From: Octopus vulgaris
Taxonomy: Eukaryota
Assembly (NCBI GenBank): GCA_951406725.2
Contig: OX597826.1
Coordinates: forward strand, 19,840,001 to 19,904,000
DNA length: 64,000 bases
Direction of reading: 5' to 3'
The position numbers were made by a program, and so were the translations under genes. This document shows positions 17,491-63,863 of this stretch, piece by piece. The notes below the pieces were generated by a model. That model saw only the letters and a list, made by a program, of their open reading frames with translations. It did not search any database and was not told the DNA's origin. Position 1 is the stretch's first letter; the number at the start of each line of letters is the position of its first letter.

Positions 17491-17885
17491 CTAGCAGTAT
17501 CGCCCGGCGTTGCTCGGGTTTGTAAGGGAAATAATTATATAAGCATTTTTAGAGATGTAAAGTATAATAGCCATCTCAATATGGCTAACCACAAAGGGGG
17601 AGGGGTGTTACTGTAGCTTTTTACGTTCTGAGATTTAATAATAAATTTTAGAGAGTTACTTCCCTTATATATGTCAAAAATGGATTAAAAATGGGAAAAA
17701 TTGATGGTAATTTTTTTTTTAAATCGTAGACTCATCGTAGACGCGCGCTAATACCCAGACGGTCTCGATATGAATCACGACTATAAGATACCCGCTTTTG
17801 GTTAAACTGCACCGCAAAATGTGGGAGTAGTTAGGAATCTAAATCGTAGGAGACAGACACACAACCTCACTTTTATATATAAAGA
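17491..17885 (-). mobile_element. Non-autonomous Helitron
   Basis: Minus strand reads A|TCTTTATATATAAAAG...CCCGAGCAACGCCGGG-CGATACTG-CTAG|T: 5' TC, 3' hairpin plus CTAG, inserted in AT. Confidence 0.8.
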
Positions 17886-18650: not shown

Positions 18651-19345
18651 AGACCTGGTAGAAACAGCAGCCAAATCTCCCTCAAATCACACCTTACTGT
18701 CTTATGTATGTATATATATATGAGCCAATGAGGGGGACCTCTACATGGTAGCTAGACCTGGTAGAAATAGCAGCCAAATTTCCCCCAAATCACACCTTAC
18801 TGTCTTATCTATGTATATATGTATGTATGAGCCTATGAGGGAGACCCCTACATGGCAGCTAGACCTGGTAGAAATAGCAGCCAAATTTCCCCCAAATCAC
18901 ACCTTACTGTCTTATCTATGTATATATGTATGTATGAGCCTATGAGGGAGACCCCTACATGGCAGCTAGACCTGGTAGAAATAGCAGCCAAATTTCCCCC
19001 AAATCACACCTTACTGTCTTATCTATGTATATATGTATGTATGAGCCTATGAGGGAGACCCCTACATGGCAGCTAGACCTGGTAGAAATAGCAGCCAAAT
19101 TTCCCCCAAATCACACCTTACTGTCTTATCTATGTATATATGTATGTATGAGCCTATGAGGGAGACCCCTACATGGCAGCTAGACCTGGTAGAAATAGCA
19201 GCCAAATTTCCCCCAAATCACACCTTACTGTCTTATCTATGTATATATGTATGTATGAGCCTATGAGGGAGACCCCTACATGGCAGCTAGACATGGTAGA
19301 AATAGCAGCCAAATCTCCCTCAAATCACACCTTACTGTCTTATCT
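18651..19345. repeat. 107-bp tandem repeat, about 6.5 units
   Basis: Near-identical ORFs recur at 18745, 18852, 18959, 19066 and 19173; internal units appear identical. Confidence 0.97.
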
Positions 19346-27299: not shown

Positions 27300-28860
27300 A
27301 CGAAAAAACAAAAGACGAAGACGGGTGATGTAGAAAAACAGATGTATTAGTATAACGCTCGGGAATAGAAAAAGTCTTTTACGTTTCGATCCTACGCTCT
27401 TCCACAGAAAGGAACGCAGAGAGAAACAAGGAGAGAAAAAAATGTGTGTAGTGGCTACCGATCTATCATGGTGACTGCCGGACAGAAGGGTCGCACAGGA
27501 GAGCGAAGAAATAGGGGAGATAACAAAGTAATAGTGATCCCAAAACGAAGGGGTGCATGTGTGTTACAGAGTACGTATGTGCGTGTGAAAGAGGGCTGGT
27601 GGTCTTGACGTGTGCGTGTGTGTATGTATAGGTGTGAAAATGTGGGGATGGGCATTGGTCAGTGCTGGGGTGTGGGTGGTGGTGTGTTGTGATGTGACGT
27701 GTTGTGATGTGATGTATTGTGTGGTATGGTGTAGTGTGGTGTGGTGTGATGTTGTTGGGAGGTGGGGAGGCGAGAATGGCGAAAGCACGGGTGGGCTGTG
27801 GGTTAGGCTGAGTGTTGGGGTAGGGTTGGGGTATGTGGGTAGACAGAGGGTGGGGGTAGAGGTTGGGTATGTGGGAGAGGGTGTAAGGGATGGTATGGGG
27901 TGGAATGGGAAGGATAGGGAAGGTGGGTATGAGAGAAGAGAGAAAGAGAGTAAAGGAGAAAGAGAGTAAGAGAGAAGAGAGAAAGAGAGTAAGGGAGAAG
28001 TGAGAAAGAGAGTAGGGTGAAAAGGAGTAGTAGTGAAGAGAAGTAGGAGGCGGAACAAGAGAGGAGAGGTGGGTGGGAGGAAGTAGGAGGGAAATGGAGA
28101 GAGGCAAGGGGAGGAGGTTAAATGAAGAAGGGAGGAGAGTTGAGCCCATGTGGCACAAAGGATCGAAGAGAGAAGATTATTCCATGTTCACGGCGCAAAC
28201 GGGAGTCCAGAGGGAAACTGTGCAAGGATAATCCGAACACGGACAGGTGTTGCAAAGAGTGACCGGTAGAGCGGAAATACCGTGAGCCCGGGGTGTCATT
28301 GCCGAGGCGGATGTCTTGGAGGTGTTCCGCGAACAGGTCAGCCAAGCGGCGTCCCGTTTGTCCGATGTACAGAGAATGGCAGAGAAAGCAGGAGATGCAA
28401 TAGATGATATTGGTTGAAGTGCAGGTGAAGGAGTCGGTGATGGGTGCCGGATAGGAGGGTGGTGTTGGAGATGTAAGGGCAAGTGCGGCAGCTTGGGCGG
28501 GAGCAGGGGAACGAGCCAGGTTGGGGGTTGGGTTGGGGAAGAAGCTGTGAACCAAGAGGTCTTGTAGGTTGTGGGCTCGTTTGAAGGAGAGGAGGGGTCG
28601 GTTAGGGAAGACGTGTGAAGTGGACGGGTCGGACTGGAGGTGCCGGAAAGCTCGGAGAATGGTGCATTGAAGAGGTAGGGTGGTGGGGTGGTAGGTGAGG
28701 GGAAAAGGGAGGCGGGAGACTGCAGGGCGGGTTCATGGGGAGAGAGTAGATGCACGGTTCATGGAACGTGCTCTGGCAAGGACTAGAAGGCCTAAAGCGT
28801 GGCTGGTAACACTAAGTGCTATGGACAGATTATAGCTAAACTCTTGGTTCGATAGTGATA
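27300..28860 (-). mobile_element. Penelope-like element (Neptune-type) 3' fragment: GIY-YIG endonuclease, 3' UTR and hammerhead-like motif
   Basis: FTCTSTNIIYCISCFLCHSLYIGQTGRRLADLFAEHL...RREHGIIFSLRSFVPHGLN (ORF 28118-28555). Confidence 0.9.
27376..27411 (-). ncRNA. Minimal type I hammerhead-like motif, variant core
   Basis: CTTT-CTGTGGA-A-GAGC GTAG GATC-GAAA-CG-TA-AAAG. Confidence 0.55.
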
Positions 28861-29717: not shown

Positions 29718-29756
29718 CAATTATTTGTGAAGGAAATCTAATTCTCGGCGACAACT

Positions 29757-29820
29757 ATGATTGTCATACGCTGACGAGAGGTTTAATACCTCGAAACTCG
29801 AGTCCGTGTGTATCATAAGT
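29757..29820 (+). ncRNA. Type I hammerhead ribozyme, intact core
   Basis: CATACG-CTGACGA-GAGGT TTAAT ACCTC-GAAA-CTCGAG-TC^CGTGTG; predicted cleavage after 29804. Confidence 0.88.
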
Positions 29821-30018
29821 TGAAGACGGGAAGGATGACTTCCCTTTGCAAATACTGACAGGACACAGAAAGTGTGTCTATGGCCAGCTGGAGGAGTGTG
29901 TCCTCCTGGGGCTAAAAACTACAGTAGCATCCACCCTTAGGGGTTAGCCATATTGAAATGGCAAAAATACATCACGTTGTGTTACCGCTACTGTATATAA
30001 CTCACATTGATATTTATC

Positions 30019-30053
<35 letters not shown>

Positions 30054-30182
30054 TTTATAGAAGGAGCTTCTACAGAAACAGTTCTAGTCCTGTAGAAGCT
30101 CCTTCTATAAAATAAATTAATTTACTCTGCTATGTATTGAGTACCTAATTTACTGTGGTTAACCCCGACTCAACCCGGGACC

Positions 30183-30219
<37 letters not shown>

Positions 30220-30731
30220 ATACTAAGTAATTAAGGGTTTAGCAACGATTTGCCTCACCACACACCGAATTTAGAAATAGCAGTCAAATAGTTATGGCTA
30301 TTCTTTCTACTTAAAAGAGAGATCTCAGTAAAACCACAGCACTTAAAAGGCAAACAACTATTTGACTGCTATTTCTAAATTCGGTGTGTGGTGAGGCAAA
30401 TCGTTGCTAAACCCTTAATTACTTAGTATTACTTAAACCTTCCTCGAATGGGGCTTTTACATGCTGAAATCTACTTGGTGAAATTAATGATTACTCCAAA
30501 TTAATTGATTTCACCCTATATTATTATTGATATATATGTCTATGTGTGTGTGGCTGTGTGTATGTGTATATGTATGCGCACGCATATGCGTATATGAATA
30601 CATTTACGGATGCGCGTGAGCTTACATGTATATATATATATATATATATGTAGGTCCCGGGTTGAGTCGGGGTTAACCACAGTAAATAAGGTACTCAATA
30701 CATCGCAGAGTAAATTAATTTATTATATAGG

Positions 30732-30782
30732 AGCTTCTACAGGACTAGAACTGTTTCATTCAAAAGAAATCATCAGGAAGCT
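30732..30782 (-). ncRNA. Type I hammerhead ribozyme, intact core with weak stem II
   Basis: AGCTTC-CTGATGA-T TTC TTTT GAA T-GAAA-CAG TTCTAGTC CTG-TA^GAAGCT. Confidence 0.78.
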
Positions 30783-49334: not shown

Positions 49335-50289
49335 ATCATCATCATTATTATTATTATTGAGTGAGTGAGCTGTGCTTGACATCAAAGTTACACTAGGGTA
49401 GAAATATACGAAGCCCAATATACTACCTATCTGGGAACACCAGGCACATGCATCACAGCCGTATGTGCGTGACATGGTGATCTCATATCAAGATAACACC
49501 GCATGACCTTGCAGGTGGGGCCCAGTTAGAATTTTCTTCAGGTCAAGTCGCCCATCCCGATCAAAAGGTCCCTGAATAAAGATTGTTTAAGGATATTGAA
49601 CGAAACAAGCAAATCTGTGGTATTGAGCAGAATATTCAGCAACAGTACTTGTAGTAAAGATTGTTTGCCATCATAGCATGGCAGTCCTGGTTTAAGACGA
49701 ATGCTGCTGTAATTTAGCCCAGGAGACATCGTCTCCAGCTGGCTATACGACAAGATCTGTGCCCTTATATTTTCGAACAAGGAAATCTAGCACCCCCACC
49801 TTCTCAAAAATAGTTATTTTCTAATTTATAGATCATTAACTAGTTGTCACTGTGAAAACTATATATTTCGAACAAAAATTTGGCAGCGCCACCTCTTGTT
49901 GAACAATTATTCTATTATGATGAATAGAAATAACCCGGAAATCGCGATACAGGGATATTGTTTTGAGCTGGGTGGGGGTGCTAGATTCCCTTGTTCGAAA
50001 ATATAAGGGCACAAATCGTGTCGTATAGCCAGCTGGAGACGATGTCTCCTGGGGCTAAATTACAGCAACATTCGTCCTAAACCAGGACTGCCATGTTATG
50101 TTGGCAAACAATCTTTACTACAGAATATTTACAGTAGCTCATCTTTTACACCAAGACAAAACATGTACATGATAACTCTTCCAATCATTAAAGATCAGAA
50201 GCCATGAGAATCAGTGCCTGGTACTGCATCAGGGCATTTATTATCATTATCATCATTATTATTATTATTATTGTTGTTGTTGTTGCTGT

Positions 50290-52229: not shown

Positions 52230-54196
52230 CAAGCTTCTTACCACACAGCTACGCCTGTATATGCGCGCGCACACACACACACACAAACACACATACACAC
52301 ACACACACACATACACACACATACACGCGCACACACTCATACACACGTGTATTACTTTATCTTTTCCTCCCAGAGGCTGTAGTCACGCATTGAGAGTCAC
52401 CATTGGATTGATTTTTTTGTCATTTACACGACTCTCATTTGTTTTGTTTTGTTGTTTTGATATAATGCGGGTTCGTATGCTACCTCAGATAAAAATTTGT
52501 CGTTTTTAATGAATCCATATCTAAGCCCTATATTGAAAAGCTGTTTCACCTTAACATTTAAGATATTATAGTAATGGATCTTTACTATATACGGAGAGGT
52601 TGGGACCTTTGTTACTATGTAGTGATGTTCAGTCTGGGGTATGAGGTATTATCCCAAACTTAGGTGCTAAAACCTCCTGGATTTTCCATATATACATTCT
52701 GCATATCTATTTATTGTTTGTTCTAGGGAGTCTCAACTGGCCTCACCCAGTTGCACCGAGGCAATTTTCTTTTCGTATAATAGCGCTAGTTTGCATTAAG
52801 CTCTGCCGTTAGTTTCTTGCTAAGGGGCGACCAGAATTAGGAACAGTAATCCAGATGACTGAGAACAAATGCATTCTACAGAACCAACATGGTTTCCTTT
52901 ATCTTGCCCTGAATGATCTTAGAATCCAACCAGCCACTCGTCGTCACAATGTTATCAATATTCGCATGAGATGAGACTTCACTAACGCAATAATAAATCT
53001 CTTTACGTTGTCGATCGGTTACTGTTTACATCTCGTTCAGAGATTTATTATTGCTTTCAGACAGTTTTTCGAAATCAGTGACAGTGGTTACTGGGAAAAA
53101 CATTAAATAGATATTCGCAAACAGGTCTCTCCTCATCGAAAACCGGTGATTACCGTATGTTGACAAGGGGCAAAAACCTCGAAACCGCAGTCCGTGCGTA
53201 TCACTTAGGTTTACGAGAGGGGATGACCTCCCTTTGCAGATATCATAAGGGCACAGAAAGTGTGCCTAAAGCCAGCTGGTGACGATGATCTCCTGGGGCT
53301 AAAAGCTACAGTAACACCCACCCTTAGTGGTTAGCCATATTGAGATGGCTAGTATACTTTACGTTTTATTGTAATTATTCTTTCTCAATTTTATCTCTTA
53401 TTCTTCTCTCCCCATCTTTTCACTAACATTCGTTCCCTTGTTCATGCCTTCCTTCCATGTAATAGCGTCTCACACCAACAGCATTTCTCTTGCCTTCATT
53501 TTCACCTCTCTCTCGTCCCCGATCCACCTCTTTATTTCTATGGTCCGCCCCCATACATAATAAGATAACATACCAACACCTCAAAGCCTTACTAACCTAC
53601 GCCACTAAACCTCCACTTTTGTACACCTATGCACACAGAAATCCCTCAATTCACACACATTACTCCGTTTACCCATTTCAAAACAACACAAGTACACTCC
53701 TATACCTCCACACACACTCGCCTCTTTCTCTCTTTTAACCTTCAAACCACAGATCCACATTTCCGCGCGGCTCCTACCCACTCATCCGTTTAACCTCTTT
53801 TTTCTTCCTTTTCTTCTTAATCACATTTCTACCCCCCCCCCAACACACACTTTTCTTTTGATGGATAACTAACGTACGAAATGATACGTAACTTTCCCTT
53901 CCTTCTTTTCAATGTCAAATAATAGTTGTTAAAACACTCTTTCCTGTGTTTCAATTCTTTTCATTTTATCTTTCTTCAATACATTTAAGATATTCATACA
54001 TTCTTTTTCTAGCAATGGCTCTGACTAAGGCGTCAATTACTTTCTTAGGTCCTACAATTTACCTCCACTGATCAATAGACCAATTCAGTAAACCTATATA
54101 CAATGACTACTGAAGACTGGTTTCTTATAATAAAGGAATTACGTGTAATAACCCTTATTTTAACTTGTCTCTTTCATATATCTATCTATCTATCTA

Positions 54197-57565: not shown

Positions 57566-59502
57566 AGTTCATCAAATCCGATATCAATGATTCAGGTGAC
57601 ATATACCAATGGTTAGCATATCAGTATTTCAGTTCATTTGCAGTGATTTCGATTCTCTTGTTTATACTCAAACATTCTCGGAAGATTATATATTTTATCT
57701 AGTTTTTTAGGTAAATTTCATCAATGTGCACGTGACAGAAAATATTCTTACTTTATATTGCTAATTAACTAATTAGTCGCCTGTTTATTTGACACAAGGT
57801 ATTTGTGAACTGGTACCTACATCATACTGATATATCTGTGTTCTAGAGGGAAATCTGAAAATTGTCCGGAAAACGTTAAATACCTAAATGACAGTATACT
57901 GTATTTATAAGCAGTATTAATGTGAATTAAATTAAATTATAAATAGAAATTATTCAGAAATATATATAAAGGGAAAAGTATTTTAGCAAAACAACCTCAG
58001 TATGTATATGTATTGAATATCCGTTGATATTCTGTTGTAGCTTGTGAAGAAGTTTGCAGAACTGAGATCTCGGCCATTGTTTCAGCAGCAAATGCCTCCA
58101 TTGATTTATTGTGCAAGTAAGTGACGATAAATTATTGTTCATGTCAATAAATCCCACAGGAAAGAATTTCTGTCCAATCCTTTCTTTGCAACATCTTGAG
58201 TGCCTTACAAATATTTATCAATGATCTTGCTTCAGTTTTTCAGGTACTTGCTTCGAATTTTGTGATTCTGATTCTAAGTTAAATGTCTAAAGTCTACCAT
58301 TTCCTTGCTTCTACATTGATTAATCACCATTGTTTCTTATGTGATGCAGTATGCTAAATTTTGTACAGAGGCACTATAGTCTTTTGAATTAACACAAGTA
58401 TATCACTGGTACTTAATTTTATATCAACCTCGATAAATGTTAAATTCAACCCTTTCGATGTTTGGAGAGTAGAAGAACAAAAGTAACTAACGTAAGTCTG
58501 GTGCTTTACTTTCGTTTATATTAAATCACGACTCATCATGAATTAAATGTAAAGCTTATTGATTGAATTAAAAAAAACGGGATATGGTCTACTTAACTAT
58601 TTGATTTTTTTTTATTTGCAGTAATTATCGCAAGTATGGCGACTGTCTGAAAAGGTATGGTTGCACAAAACGAGACTTGAGGTTGACGAATATCAAGATA
58701 CTGGATGAATGTAAGTATTACTTGGTGTAAATAAACAAATACATACGTATAACAGTAAAACAATGTAGAACGATTCAAGGCTTAACTTGAATTGCAAGCA
58801 AATACATTTCGTGTTTAACAATCTGTTTAGCACAACACATTGTTGGATGAGTGGAAAGTGGTTTACTATATTAAGATGTCTGTGCATATTCATATTTTAC
58901 ATTAATATTTTACAAGTATAACTGTTTGGCTGAGAAGTTCACATCGAACAAGTATTTTCTACTTTAAGCCCAGTCTGACCAATGCCTTGTAAATGAATTT
59001 GCTTGGCAAAAAATGCGTGGATGCCCGTCCTATATGCGTGTGTCTCTCCATGCGTATCTTTCTATTTGTACTGATACCATTTAACAACCACTGTTCGCTC
59101 TTTTGTGCACCCGTAACTTAGCAGTCGGCAAAAGAGCCGATAAAGTAAGTGTTAAAGTAAAAAATTAATTAGTACTGTGGTCATGATGGAGCTCCCGTAT
59201 GGTCGTAGTCGAATGACTGAAAGAAGTATAAGAAGAAAATACAGCTTATACTGTGGAAAATTCCTTTTATAATCTCTCGACTAAAGATCAGCTTCAATGT
59301 CAGGCATTGTGTTGTAATAATTCAGGTTAACAGAGAAGGTGGCAAGCAACACCGAAGGGTGTACTGAATAAGGTATATCAGTACCGATGAGCGAGATGGA
59401 AATATAGAGTACTGGAATCGGTTAAACATTCACGAGGCTTGGTATCACTGATGACCCACAGGGTTTGGAAGCGAGGGACCTTGATATATATCCCCCCTCC
59501 CC

Positions 59503-59551
<49 letters not shown>

Positions 59552-59679
59552 CCTTTTGCAAATACCGATAGGGCACAGAAATTGTGTCAATAGCCAGCTG
59601 GAGAAGATGTTCTCCTGGGCCTACAAACTACAGTAACATCCACCCTTAGTGGTTAGCCATATTCAGATGGCAAATATAC

Positions 59680-59750
<71 letters not shown>

Positions 59751-59997: not shown

Positions 59998-60254
59998 TTT
60001 ATTCAGCAGCTAATTCCTTCTTTTTATTTCTGCACCTACACATGTTTCTGCAGAAATTAACTAATGCACAATGCAAAATTTGCATCTTTATGTCCACTTA
60101 TTGTTAGTTTCCACTCCTTCAAGGTCGAATCAATCTCATTGTTCAGACAGAATCTAAATTAAGTACAAGTCGAGCCGAAATACACGTGGTGCTGTTATTG
60201 TTCCAAAAATAGCCTAGATTCTAACCTTTTCAACTATATTTTTTTGGACAAATC

Positions 60255-61760
60255 TCAGGAATCTACATGGTTGACTTCCTGGTGGTAGGGTACTCGGTAA
60301 CTAATTTTTGCCTGAGCGTTCCGGTTGGTTGGTTCCCTTAAGAAGTCACTATTTGTTTTTTCCTAAGAGTCTGGTTTTCACAAGAGTAAAAATTTTATTG
60401 GTTTGGTTTGAGGTGACGTCAGTAACTGATGTTTGAGAAGATGTATGGTGTCATTGTATAATAATTTGGAGTTAGAGTTTCGAATCCCCGAGGAAGCCTG
60501 TTACTTAAAGTTTTCGAATTATTTAAAATATATCTTTGTTGCCCCATCGCAGTCCCAAGTTTTTGTTTTCAACGAAACCACCTACAGACAATAGTCTGGG
60601 ACTGCGATGGGAACGATCACAGTCCCTACTTTTTCTAACCTTGTCATGGCACACTTGCAAGATCAGATATACGAAAACATCAGACTGAAATTTGGTGACA
60701 ACTTCCAAGTATACTTACTCGCCAAATCGAAACGCTACCTGGATGACTGTTTCATTTTGTGATCACATAACCTTGGTCTATTCTAGGAATTTAAAAATTT
60801 AATTAACAATATTAACCACAGTATCCAATGTATGATGGAATACAGTCACAAACAGCGACCGTTTCAGGGCATTTTAATGATAAACAGATATACTAACATT
60901 GAAATCGACATCTACTTTAAACCAACAAACTCAAAACAATATCTGTCACCCAAAGCATACTAAAATCAATATACTTTTTAACTTGGCAAGAAGAATTTGC
61001 ACGATTATTCCAAATCCCGAAACCCGGGATAAACGACTCATAGAAAGAAGATACCCGGTTAGTTTAATCAAAAACAGAATGGAACGTGTAAAAACGATAG
61101 ACATCCAAGAATTACGAGAAACAAGAAAACCTGACACATTTAAAACTTTGTATTAAATAGCAACACACAATCCAGGGAACATGGAAGCATACATCATCCA
61201 TACCCCTTCTGCTGAACTCGAAGCACATAGAATTATTAAAATTAAACAGCAACCCAAATCCCTAAAAAGGTTACTTACCAGCACCTAATTACCCACCAAA
61301 AATACAACCCCACTAAATTCAAAAAGTACAACCGCCCTCTCTGTCAATGCACCTGGAACACTTCAACCCAATTCCGATTGAATAAGGAAAGTATGTTAAT
61401 TAAAATGTACAACTCACAACTAAATATCCTATAATAACATACCAGAAAGAGAAAACCCAATTAATTTACGAAAAACAGTCAGAGACTGATATAATTCGAA
61501 AACAGGCTTCCTCGGGGATTCGAAACTCCAACTACAAATTAATATACAATAACACCATGCATCTTCCCAAACATCGGTTGCTGACGTCACCTCAGACAAA
61601 ACAAATGAAATTTTTCTCTGGTCAAAACCAGGCTCAGGAAAAATCAAATAGTGACTTCTTAGGCAACCAAACAACCTGAACGCTAGATAACCATCAGGAA
61701 AAAACGAGCTACCTAATCCCTAGTAGGAAGTCAACCAAGTAGAACACTGAACTTTGCCAA
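60255..61760 (+). mobile_element. Penelope-like RT fragment flanked by about 250-bp inverted repeats
   Basis: GTAMGT...FSNLVMA, KRYLDDCF, YFKPTNSKQYL, CHPKHTKINILFNLARRICTI; 60255-60503 is inverted relative to 61501-61750. Confidence 0.85.
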
Positions 61761-62286
61761 ATCAAAACGGAAATTATTTTTGATCAAAATAAGTGACATC
61801 ACGAAACCTTCAACCAATCAGAACTTGTTCTTTGATCGTGGTGAACAAGGAAAAGATGTCACCAGAAAGTAAACCAACCAAAACGCTAGACTTTGCTAAA
61901 ACAAAAATATTTGTACCAAAACATCCACCAGAAAAAAGAACAGAAAGACGCCATCAAAACTTGATGCTTTATCGTAAAAATATATACATATTAAAAGATT
62001 TGGACTTATAACATTTCAAACTCAAATGAGCTAAGAAGGTGAAGAGATCCTTGCACTGAAATTGAGAAAAGAACTACACGCACCACAACAGAAATTGCAA
62101 AAAAATATACATTTTTTCTTTCTTTCCATCTTTTTCTTTTTCTTCATCACTTTTCTACAAAAATTCAATAAGACTGAACTTTCAGTGAAATCTCTTTAAT
62201 AAGATTTGTTTTAACCTGAGCCCCAAAAGTAATGATTAACTATATTTTATTTTTATTTTTATCTTTTATATTATGATTATAATTAA

Positions 62287-62489: not shown

Positions 62490-63863
<1,374 letters not shown>

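Follow-up and report, generated by a model that had tools for sequence, protein, structure and literature searches.

Why should a hammerhead ribozyme motif be followed, at a fixed spacing, by the same series of hairpins at several places in octopus DNA? An initial annotation of the window (the whole 64-kb stretch analysed here) had recorded this arrangement in four regions. The hairpin series is indeed present in all four, and two more copies were found. All of these repeats are scattered copies and fragments of one non-coding unit of 353–356 nt (about 355 nt) with a circular map. Carrying a type I hammerhead at the tip of a predicted rod, the unit is likely an animal non-LTR retrozyme. Profile searches of the window returned the six copies that follow and no other below E 1.

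29722..30021, plus strand: copy 1, 300 nt of the 353-nt unit, young, between two (TA)n runs
49810..50122, plus strand: copy 2, near-complete monomer of a distant subfamily, with a decayed hammerhead at 49917-49949 and the rod at about 49866-50001
53001..53365, plus strand: copy 3, complete permuted monomer with a hammerhead core at 53160-53192 that carries U3/A8
59550..59684, plus strand: copy 4, a module that lacks its 5' part, with (TA)n on one side and (CA)n on the other, and without a homologous hammerhead
49637..49809, minus strand: copy 5, inverted and 5'-truncated, directly next to copy 2, to which it is 93% identical; its 3' end is longer by 13 nt, which form the partner arm of helix H5
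17557..17621, minus strand: copy 6, a 65-nt 3' fragment (H5 arm, H3 and H4) in a Helitron-like element

Copies 5 and 6, as well as about 145 further nt of copy 3, were absent from the initial annotation. Copy 1 shares 78.6% identity with copy 3 and 86% with the module of copy 4. When the upstream part of copy 2 was compared with copy 3, 6 of 500 shuffles and 15 of 500 random segments scored as high.

Copy 3 contains the entire 356-nt monomer in circularly permuted form, has a 9-nt terminal repeat and is opened at another point of the circle than copy 1. It corresponds to one full turn plus 9 nt, because its terminal 9-mer is repeated (53001-53009 equals 53357-53365, the only two occurrences in the 64-kb window) and because its first 55 nt align with the sequence 3' of the module in copy 1 (score 44 versus 21.5±3.6; 0/300 shuffles). 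A contig of 383 nt from the public run X17 runs from 29916 to 30021, continues through 54 letters and re-enters at 29722-29945, and thus closes on itself with a period of 353; it is 98% identical to copy 1, from which 6 letters and one gap differ. Two contigs of run X8 overhang by 26 and 58 letters, which after a 30-letter overlap leads arithmetically to the same 54, and a loose end in X17 crosses the end-to-start junction of copy 3 with 28 of 30 letters in agreement (compared by eye). The closing joint was listed in one of four public runs, in a single contig, and was not listed in the two deep DNA runs. Such a closed contig has three possible sources, namely DNA in tandem, a circular RNA, or solo copies that are permuted at different points; no tandem array was seen within the window.

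Both unit lengths, 353 nt in the closed contig and 356 nt in copy 3, lie inside the 150–450 bp retrozyme range. The GC content of the unit copies is 42.3, 44.1 and 38.7%, no stop-to-stop frame of at least 100 aa extends over copies 1–4 and no LTR pair was seen. Animal non-LTR retrozymes are described as non-coding head-to-tail repeats of less than 50% GC that lack LTR, PBS and PPT and whose target duplications, when there are any, exceed 4 bp. The circle of copy 3 folds at -112.7 kcal/mol versus -85.1±4.7 for shuffled sequences (0/60 as low), with 64% of its bases paired, and the plus strand folded better than the minus strand in all six tests.

The family is large. Of 24 listed runs, 20 contain copy 1 or part of it, spread over 11 studies and 9 organism labels; one run may be the source of the window. 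No RNA holder is among those listed, and runs tentatively marked as RNA were left out as evidence on expression. The contigs matching it in four public runs number 4295, 3227, 43 and 7, the first two counts coming from the DNA runs. Summed over the contigs of public runs, the depth of the module is about ten times that of the hammerhead end, an excess that is no copy number and that truncation, subfamily divergence or the fragment carried by the Helitron-like element may cause. Viral relatives were considered and rejected, the two loci of one pattern scan being the same GC-rich coding stretch and a chance match; a second viral scan and two metagenome scans with such patterns gave none.

The catalytic motif is best preserved in copy 1.

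29765..29810, plus strand: canonical type I hammerhead of copy 1, core 29771-29777, predicted cleavage after C29804

It has a stem I of 6 bp with a bulge and a stem II of 4 bp; stem III consists of one pair and bears a palindromic loop. The initial annotation referred to minimal hammerheads; copy 1 is canonical by the metazoan layout given in PMC4209133, in which helix I has 6 bp and a loop 1, helix II has 4 bp and a short helix III bears a palindromic loop. The motif corresponds to Rfam Hammerhead_1 at 24.9 bits (E 0.0009), below the gathering score of 34, and it is the sole full-core match to the hammerhead descriptor in the window, where the second of two rows is weak and has a changed core. 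The Rfam search that had been proposed gave no match at the gathering threshold anywhere in the window. A second catalytic motif, suggested earlier, found no counterpart either: besides Hammerhead_1, no ribozyme family was matched at E≤10 in the four regions. Relatives restore the stem I pair at 29767, at more than 99.9% of depth in both DNA runs.

One of the six copies, copy 1, retains an intact hammerhead. That of copy 2 is decayed and still aligns with copy 1 (1/300 shuffles as high). The core of copy 3 carries U3/A8, a known variant of the hammerhead core (PMC3088659; PMC4209133); judged by its sequence, it may be this compensated core or simply two decay mutations. The claim that a hammerhead or its relic precedes every copy thus holds in full for copy 1, in decayed form for copy 2 and as a variant for copy 3, and fails for copy 4. 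The hammerhead assigned to copy 4 was rejected as a part of the element, since it aligns with neither copy 1 nor copy 3 (175/300 and 272/300 shuffles as high). Copy 4 had been described as split by (TA)n; it is a truncated module that starts at 59550, directly after the (TA)n. The two differing stem III palindromes that had been reported are present in the sequence. On the plus strand at 59378-59490, two hammerhead-core-like relics (59384 and 59448) lie 64 nt apart; they are not homologous to the retrozyme and are possibly the terminal repeat of an old PLE.

The constant spacing between ribozyme and hairpins has a structural explanation.

29722..29853, plus strand: stem I rod of copy 1, 5' arm 29722-29770, 3' arm 29805-29853

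From cleavage site to first hairpin we count 57, 58 and 57 nt in copies 1, 2 and 3, which agrees with the 58, 59 and 58 reported earlier as coordinate differences. The spacing is fixed at about 58 nt because this stretch is the 3' arm of a long extension of stem I: in the predicted fold, the 57–58 nt 3' of the cleavage site pair with 50 nt 5' of the core, and the hammerhead sits at the tip of the resulting rod. The 5' arm had been missed. The rod arms of copies 1–3 pair with their own partners at -37.0, -47.6 and -45.7 kcal/mol, values reached by 0/500 shuffles for each copy, versus -14 to -29 kcal/mol when the arms are swapped. Although hardly any alignment is left between the 5' arms of copies 1 and 3 (79/300 shuffles as high), each of them pairs with its own 3' arm. 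Between these two copies, 11 of 32 co-paired positions are changed on both sides, with positions matched by offset and pairs taken from each copy's own fold. By RNAalifold, both partners differ in 19 of 59 pairs: stem I and the rod account for 11, the hairpins for 5 and spurious core pairs for 3. By these predicted folds the rod carries the strongest covariation of the unit, as drawn from three to five related sequences and each copy's own predicted pairs, too few for formal statistics.

Downstream of the rod lies the hairpin domain, here located in copy 1.

29861..29879, plus strand: H1, with a pair probability of 0.96–1.0 for copies 1 and 3; it is shifted in copy 2, and copy 5 has it broken
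29881..29914, plus strand: H2, containing an internal loop; the 5' side of this loop does not vary across five of five copies
29920-29928 with 29987-29995, plus strand: H5, a long-range helix enclosing H3 and H4
29933-29944, plus strand: H3, inside H5
29947-29962, plus strand: H4, inside H5

H2 is the most conserved part of the aligned unit in sequence, with 13/20 and 15/20 columns identical in three copies compared with 3–9/20 in windows of the rod. H5 measures 9 bp in copy 1 and 8 bp in each of copies 3 and 5. In copy 3 one arm stands at either end of the copy, and in copy 5 the second arm is formed by the 13-nt extension. Compensatory change is seen in two pairs of H5 among these three copies. 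In trials with random 100-nt segments, such a partner arises by chance 21, 28 and 56 times in 5000. In the circle of copy 3, a decayed copy, H2 has a probability of 0.14 and H5 of 0.5, and a structure with both lies less than 1 kcal/mol from the minimum. A local helix between 29853-29857 and 29922-29926 was discarded, because in a fold extended to the downstream part these bases take 29987-29995 as their partner.

The stem variants quoted in the initial annotation are all present. That the stems vary and keep pairing is borne out to the extent that 93% of cells pair; the covariation itself is not significant, since 2 of 22 pairs are changed on both sides in five copies and 31 of 500 shuffles match this. 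Two broken pairs in the inner stem of copy 3, and other pairs broken in copies 2, 3, 4 and 5, had not been recorded. Across the family, H1 varies mostly by one-sided change from A-U to G-U, which two DNA runs show at 67–68% of depth and for which the table gives no change in the partner base, and variants of the H2 inner stem recur among loose ends common to 17–60 contigs (read by eye). The family variant table also contains changes that break terminal pairs: in the two DNA runs, 9–23% of depth is affected at 29879 and 7–13% at 29881. Copies 3, 4 and 6 share a change from G to A at 29927 that is absent from this table of public runs. A structured RNA under selection and tied to a retroelement is therefore supported, with its best evidence in the stem I rod and H5, neither of which had been named.

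The junctions of the copies bear on how the unit was inserted.

49628..49636, plus strand: left 9-bp direct repeat flanking copies 5 and 2
50121..50129, plus strand: right 9-bp direct repeat flanking copies 5 and 2
52984..53002, minus strand: 5' junction of copy 3, where the 19 nt of 53039-53057 recur in inverted orientation, 18/19 identical, E 0.007

Copies 5 and 2 adjoin each other in opposite orientation, their 3' ends pointing away from the shared boundary. The 9-bp repeat around them is likely a target-site duplication (77 of 20000 random boundary pairs give one by chance); no clear duplication was seen at copies 1, 3 and 4. Inversions with target duplications are also produced by LINE twin priming. 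By analogy, the layout of copies 5 and 2, together with insertion at (TA)n, matches a Penelope-like footprint: PLE insertions show an inverted truncated copy with a one-sided tail and a bias towards microsatellites and (TA)n (Craig et al., PMC8557442). The 3' ends of copies 2, 3, 4 and 6 fall 13–17 nt after H4, that of copy 5 at 28 nt and that of copy 1 at least 59 nt beyond it, in a count that is biased in that the copies were found through the module and copy 6 lies inside another element. Likewise, 24 contigs of run X3 depart from copy 1 at 29975, and most of them continue into AT-rich sequence (listed for X3 only).

The flanks of copies 5 and 2 (49360-49636 and 50130-50240) both end in ATT-type microsatellites and resemble two halves of one interrupted common repeat. 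To the left of copy 3, a decayed LINE-like coding fragment at 52600-52983 on the minus strand, presumably CR1/L2-like by its motifs, is not resumed on the right flank.

The window as a whole is animal-type DNA rich in repeats (36% GC), with LINE, hAT and PLE remnants and many microsatellites. At a distance of 1 kb from copy 1, and on the other strand, is a remnant of a GIY-YIG endonuclease ORF (28121-28732, minus strand, 204 aa) that shares about 40% identity with unnamed eukaryotic proteins; from its motifs it is likely a PLE C-terminus. Between 60243 and 61761 lies an interrupted RT-like coding remnant, accompanied by an inverted repeat (60243-60502 with 61501-61761); the part of the remnant at 60595-60759 is presumably PLE-derived, to judge by a PLE-type motif. 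A second PLE-like remnant is found at 62490-62792 on the minus strand. No PLE sharing the sequence of the unit, as an autonomous carrier of the module would, was found within the window.

Other repeats were observed nearby. The 395-bp element that carries copy 6 (17491-17885, minus strand) starts with TC after an A and ends with a GC-rich hairpin and CTAG before a T; by these hallmarks we regard its ends as Helitron-like. On the 3' side of copy 1, an element at 30051-30195 with a perfect internal hairpin occurs again in inverted orientation about 500 bp further on (30623-30757, 94%), both by (TA)n, with a long fold-back element between them (30215-30435). A tandem array at 18651-19345 comprises 6.5 copies of a 107-bp unit, 97% alike. 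Inverted-repeat pairs of 91–99% identity, some of them MITE-like, were seen at 17997-18319/41310-41635, 54627-54857/55934-56164, 63033-63222/63536-63725 and 38034-38197/38969-39133.

If the unit is a retrozyme, its multimeric transcripts would be cleaved at one hammerhead after the next; since stem III has one pair and a palindromic loop, double hammerheads would probably be the active form. A host ligase would close the monomer into a circle, and the circle would fold into the rod and a branched domain, the latter being the module of the initial annotation. A PLE endonuclease/RT would then prime at a preferred point 13–17 nt 3' of H4 and copy the circle in part (copy 4), almost whole (copy 2) or for one turn plus 9 nt (copy 3), an inverted piece sometimes being added at the 5' junction. 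The solo copies would be dead ends that subsequently decay. Transcription as multimers, cutting by the hammerheads (as dimers when helix III is weak) and ligation into circles have been described for retrozymes, for which PLEs are the proposed, unproven mobilisers (PMC7229834). We regard mobilisation by PLE enzymes as fairly probable here as well, and a role as RT-recognition signal is a reasonable idea for H2 and the shared 3' end point. More speculatively, the PLE enzyme might recognise H2 (or H4) on the 355-nt circle, and prime at a fixed point 13–17 nt past H4. Without RNase H, the enzyme would stall after one turn on meeting its own start, which would give permuted monomers with a 9-nt terminal repeat, inverted 5' pieces and 9-bp target duplications.

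The same observations can be read in other ways. The unit could be the pseudo-LTR of an autonomous PLE, its copies being solo pseudo-LTRs or 5'-truncated PLE ends. This would agree with the PLE-type insertion geometry, with the PLE remnants inside the window and with the situation in Xenopus, where 24 of 57 retrozyme families are homologous to known TEs (22 TEs, 21 of them annotated as PLEs) and the similarity lies at PLE termini (Li et al. 2026, bioRxiv 10.64898/2026.07.22.740005). However, the unit closes in 353 nt and leaves no space for an ORF, no copy in the window adjoins a PLE ORF in the same orientation, and the profile searches show no trace of the unit near the PLE remnants. Moreover, metazoan PLE hammerheads are minimal, with a long helix II and no helix III (PMC4209133), whereas that of copy 1 is canonical. 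We consider an origin as a pseudo-LTR unlikely.

A satellite or dispersed repeat that spreads at the DNA level, by unequal crossover or through extrachromosomal circles, and in which hammerhead and hairpins are idle inheritance, seems to us quite improbable. Tandem DNA would equally predict the circular map, and most copies in the window are decayed; but the rod arms have diverged past easy alignment and are still paired, one strand is favoured in folding, and the 5'-truncated copies, the shared 3' end and the target duplication resemble products of reverse transcription. It is very improbable that H1–H4 form a portable RNA module, a second ribozyme or a stand-alone signal, placed on different hammerheads. 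The conservation of H2 across subfamilies and the greater depth of the module could be cited in its favour, but the hairpins, which the initial annotation had treated as a module of their own, are part of the 353–356-nt unit, bound into it by the rod upstream and by H5 downstream. They match no Rfam ribozyme, and the hammerhead of copy 4 is a chance neighbour across (TA)n. A tRNA-derived SINE was also rejected: no tRNA was called in the window, no tRNA, 5S or 7SL match was obtained from Rfam, and the copies are circularly permuted.

The preferred reading, an animal non-LTR retrozyme, places the unit beside elements already described. Like those of Cervera and de la Pena (2020, PMC7229834), it combines a canonical type I hammerhead with the lack of an ORF and a highly self-paired circle, and its size and composition (353–356 nt, GC 39–44%) compare with units of 350–390 nt in mussel and 330/350 nt in axolotl. 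A long, probable target duplication and likely PLE remnants in the same genome also agree with them, and the weak helix III with a palindromic tetraloop of axolotl HHR_Amex1 (PMC7229834) recurs in copy 1. The likeness is one of features, and the window copies differ from these retrozymes in being solo and not tandem. Solo monomers are common according to Li, Clavereau and Pollet (2026, bioRxiv 10.64898/2026.07.22.740005); in their view tandem retrozymes give rise to them as dead offspring, and mobilisation is likely due to PLEs. Their survey covers 31 vertebrates, 3 insects and a coral, with no molluscs, and its available text, unlike the present work, contains no analysis of insertion junctions, permutation points or secondary-structure covariation. 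PLE pseudo-LTRs share with the octopus copies the inverted 5'-truncated copy, the one-sided tail and the (TA)n bias (PMC4209133, PMC8557442), and their hammerheads work as dimers, with a known U3-A8 variant (PMC4209133). They differ in that minimal hammerheads flank an RT/GIY-YIG ORF, whereas the unit here has a canonical hammerhead and closes without an ORF.

Type I hammerheads also occur in short repeats of other animals, interspersed or in tandem, among them schistosome Sm-alpha/Sj-alpha, newt satellite 2 and cricket pDo500, which resemble our unit by description. The existence of hammerhead repeats in schistosomes, newts and crickets is cited in PMC7229834.

The statement that this is not a described family requires qualification. 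The kind of element is known (animal non-LTR retrozymes, PMC7229834), while for the sequence family no paper or Rfam model was found. Our literature search, which covered listings and available article text, yielded no description of the sequence family and no octopus retrozyme. The available text of the O. vulgaris repeat paper (PMC13282606) mentions neither hammerhead nor ribozyme, and a giant squid paper reports, in the part available, 235 Hammerhead_1 matches without context. The sequence may be catalogued in repeat libraries as an unclassified SINE. It is probably a new, very abundant retrozyme family, of a kind already known, and not a new class of RNA.

This adds a probable retrozyme family from the octopus, a lineage in which the literature search found none described. 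Its divergent subfamilies support the predicted secondary structure of the circle by covariation, and its junctions point to PLE machinery and a preferred priming site; as far as the available text of the published sets extends, subfamily covariation and insertion junctions have not been analysed there. A cis signal is not evident in animal retrozymes according to a 2020 review (PMC7761336). If the model of recognition, priming and stalling is true, it would supply such a signal together with a handle for the partner PLE, and the family would record how animal retrozymes integrate. The subfamilies and junctions make the mobilisation of animal retrozymes testable with one assembly and a few in vitro assays.
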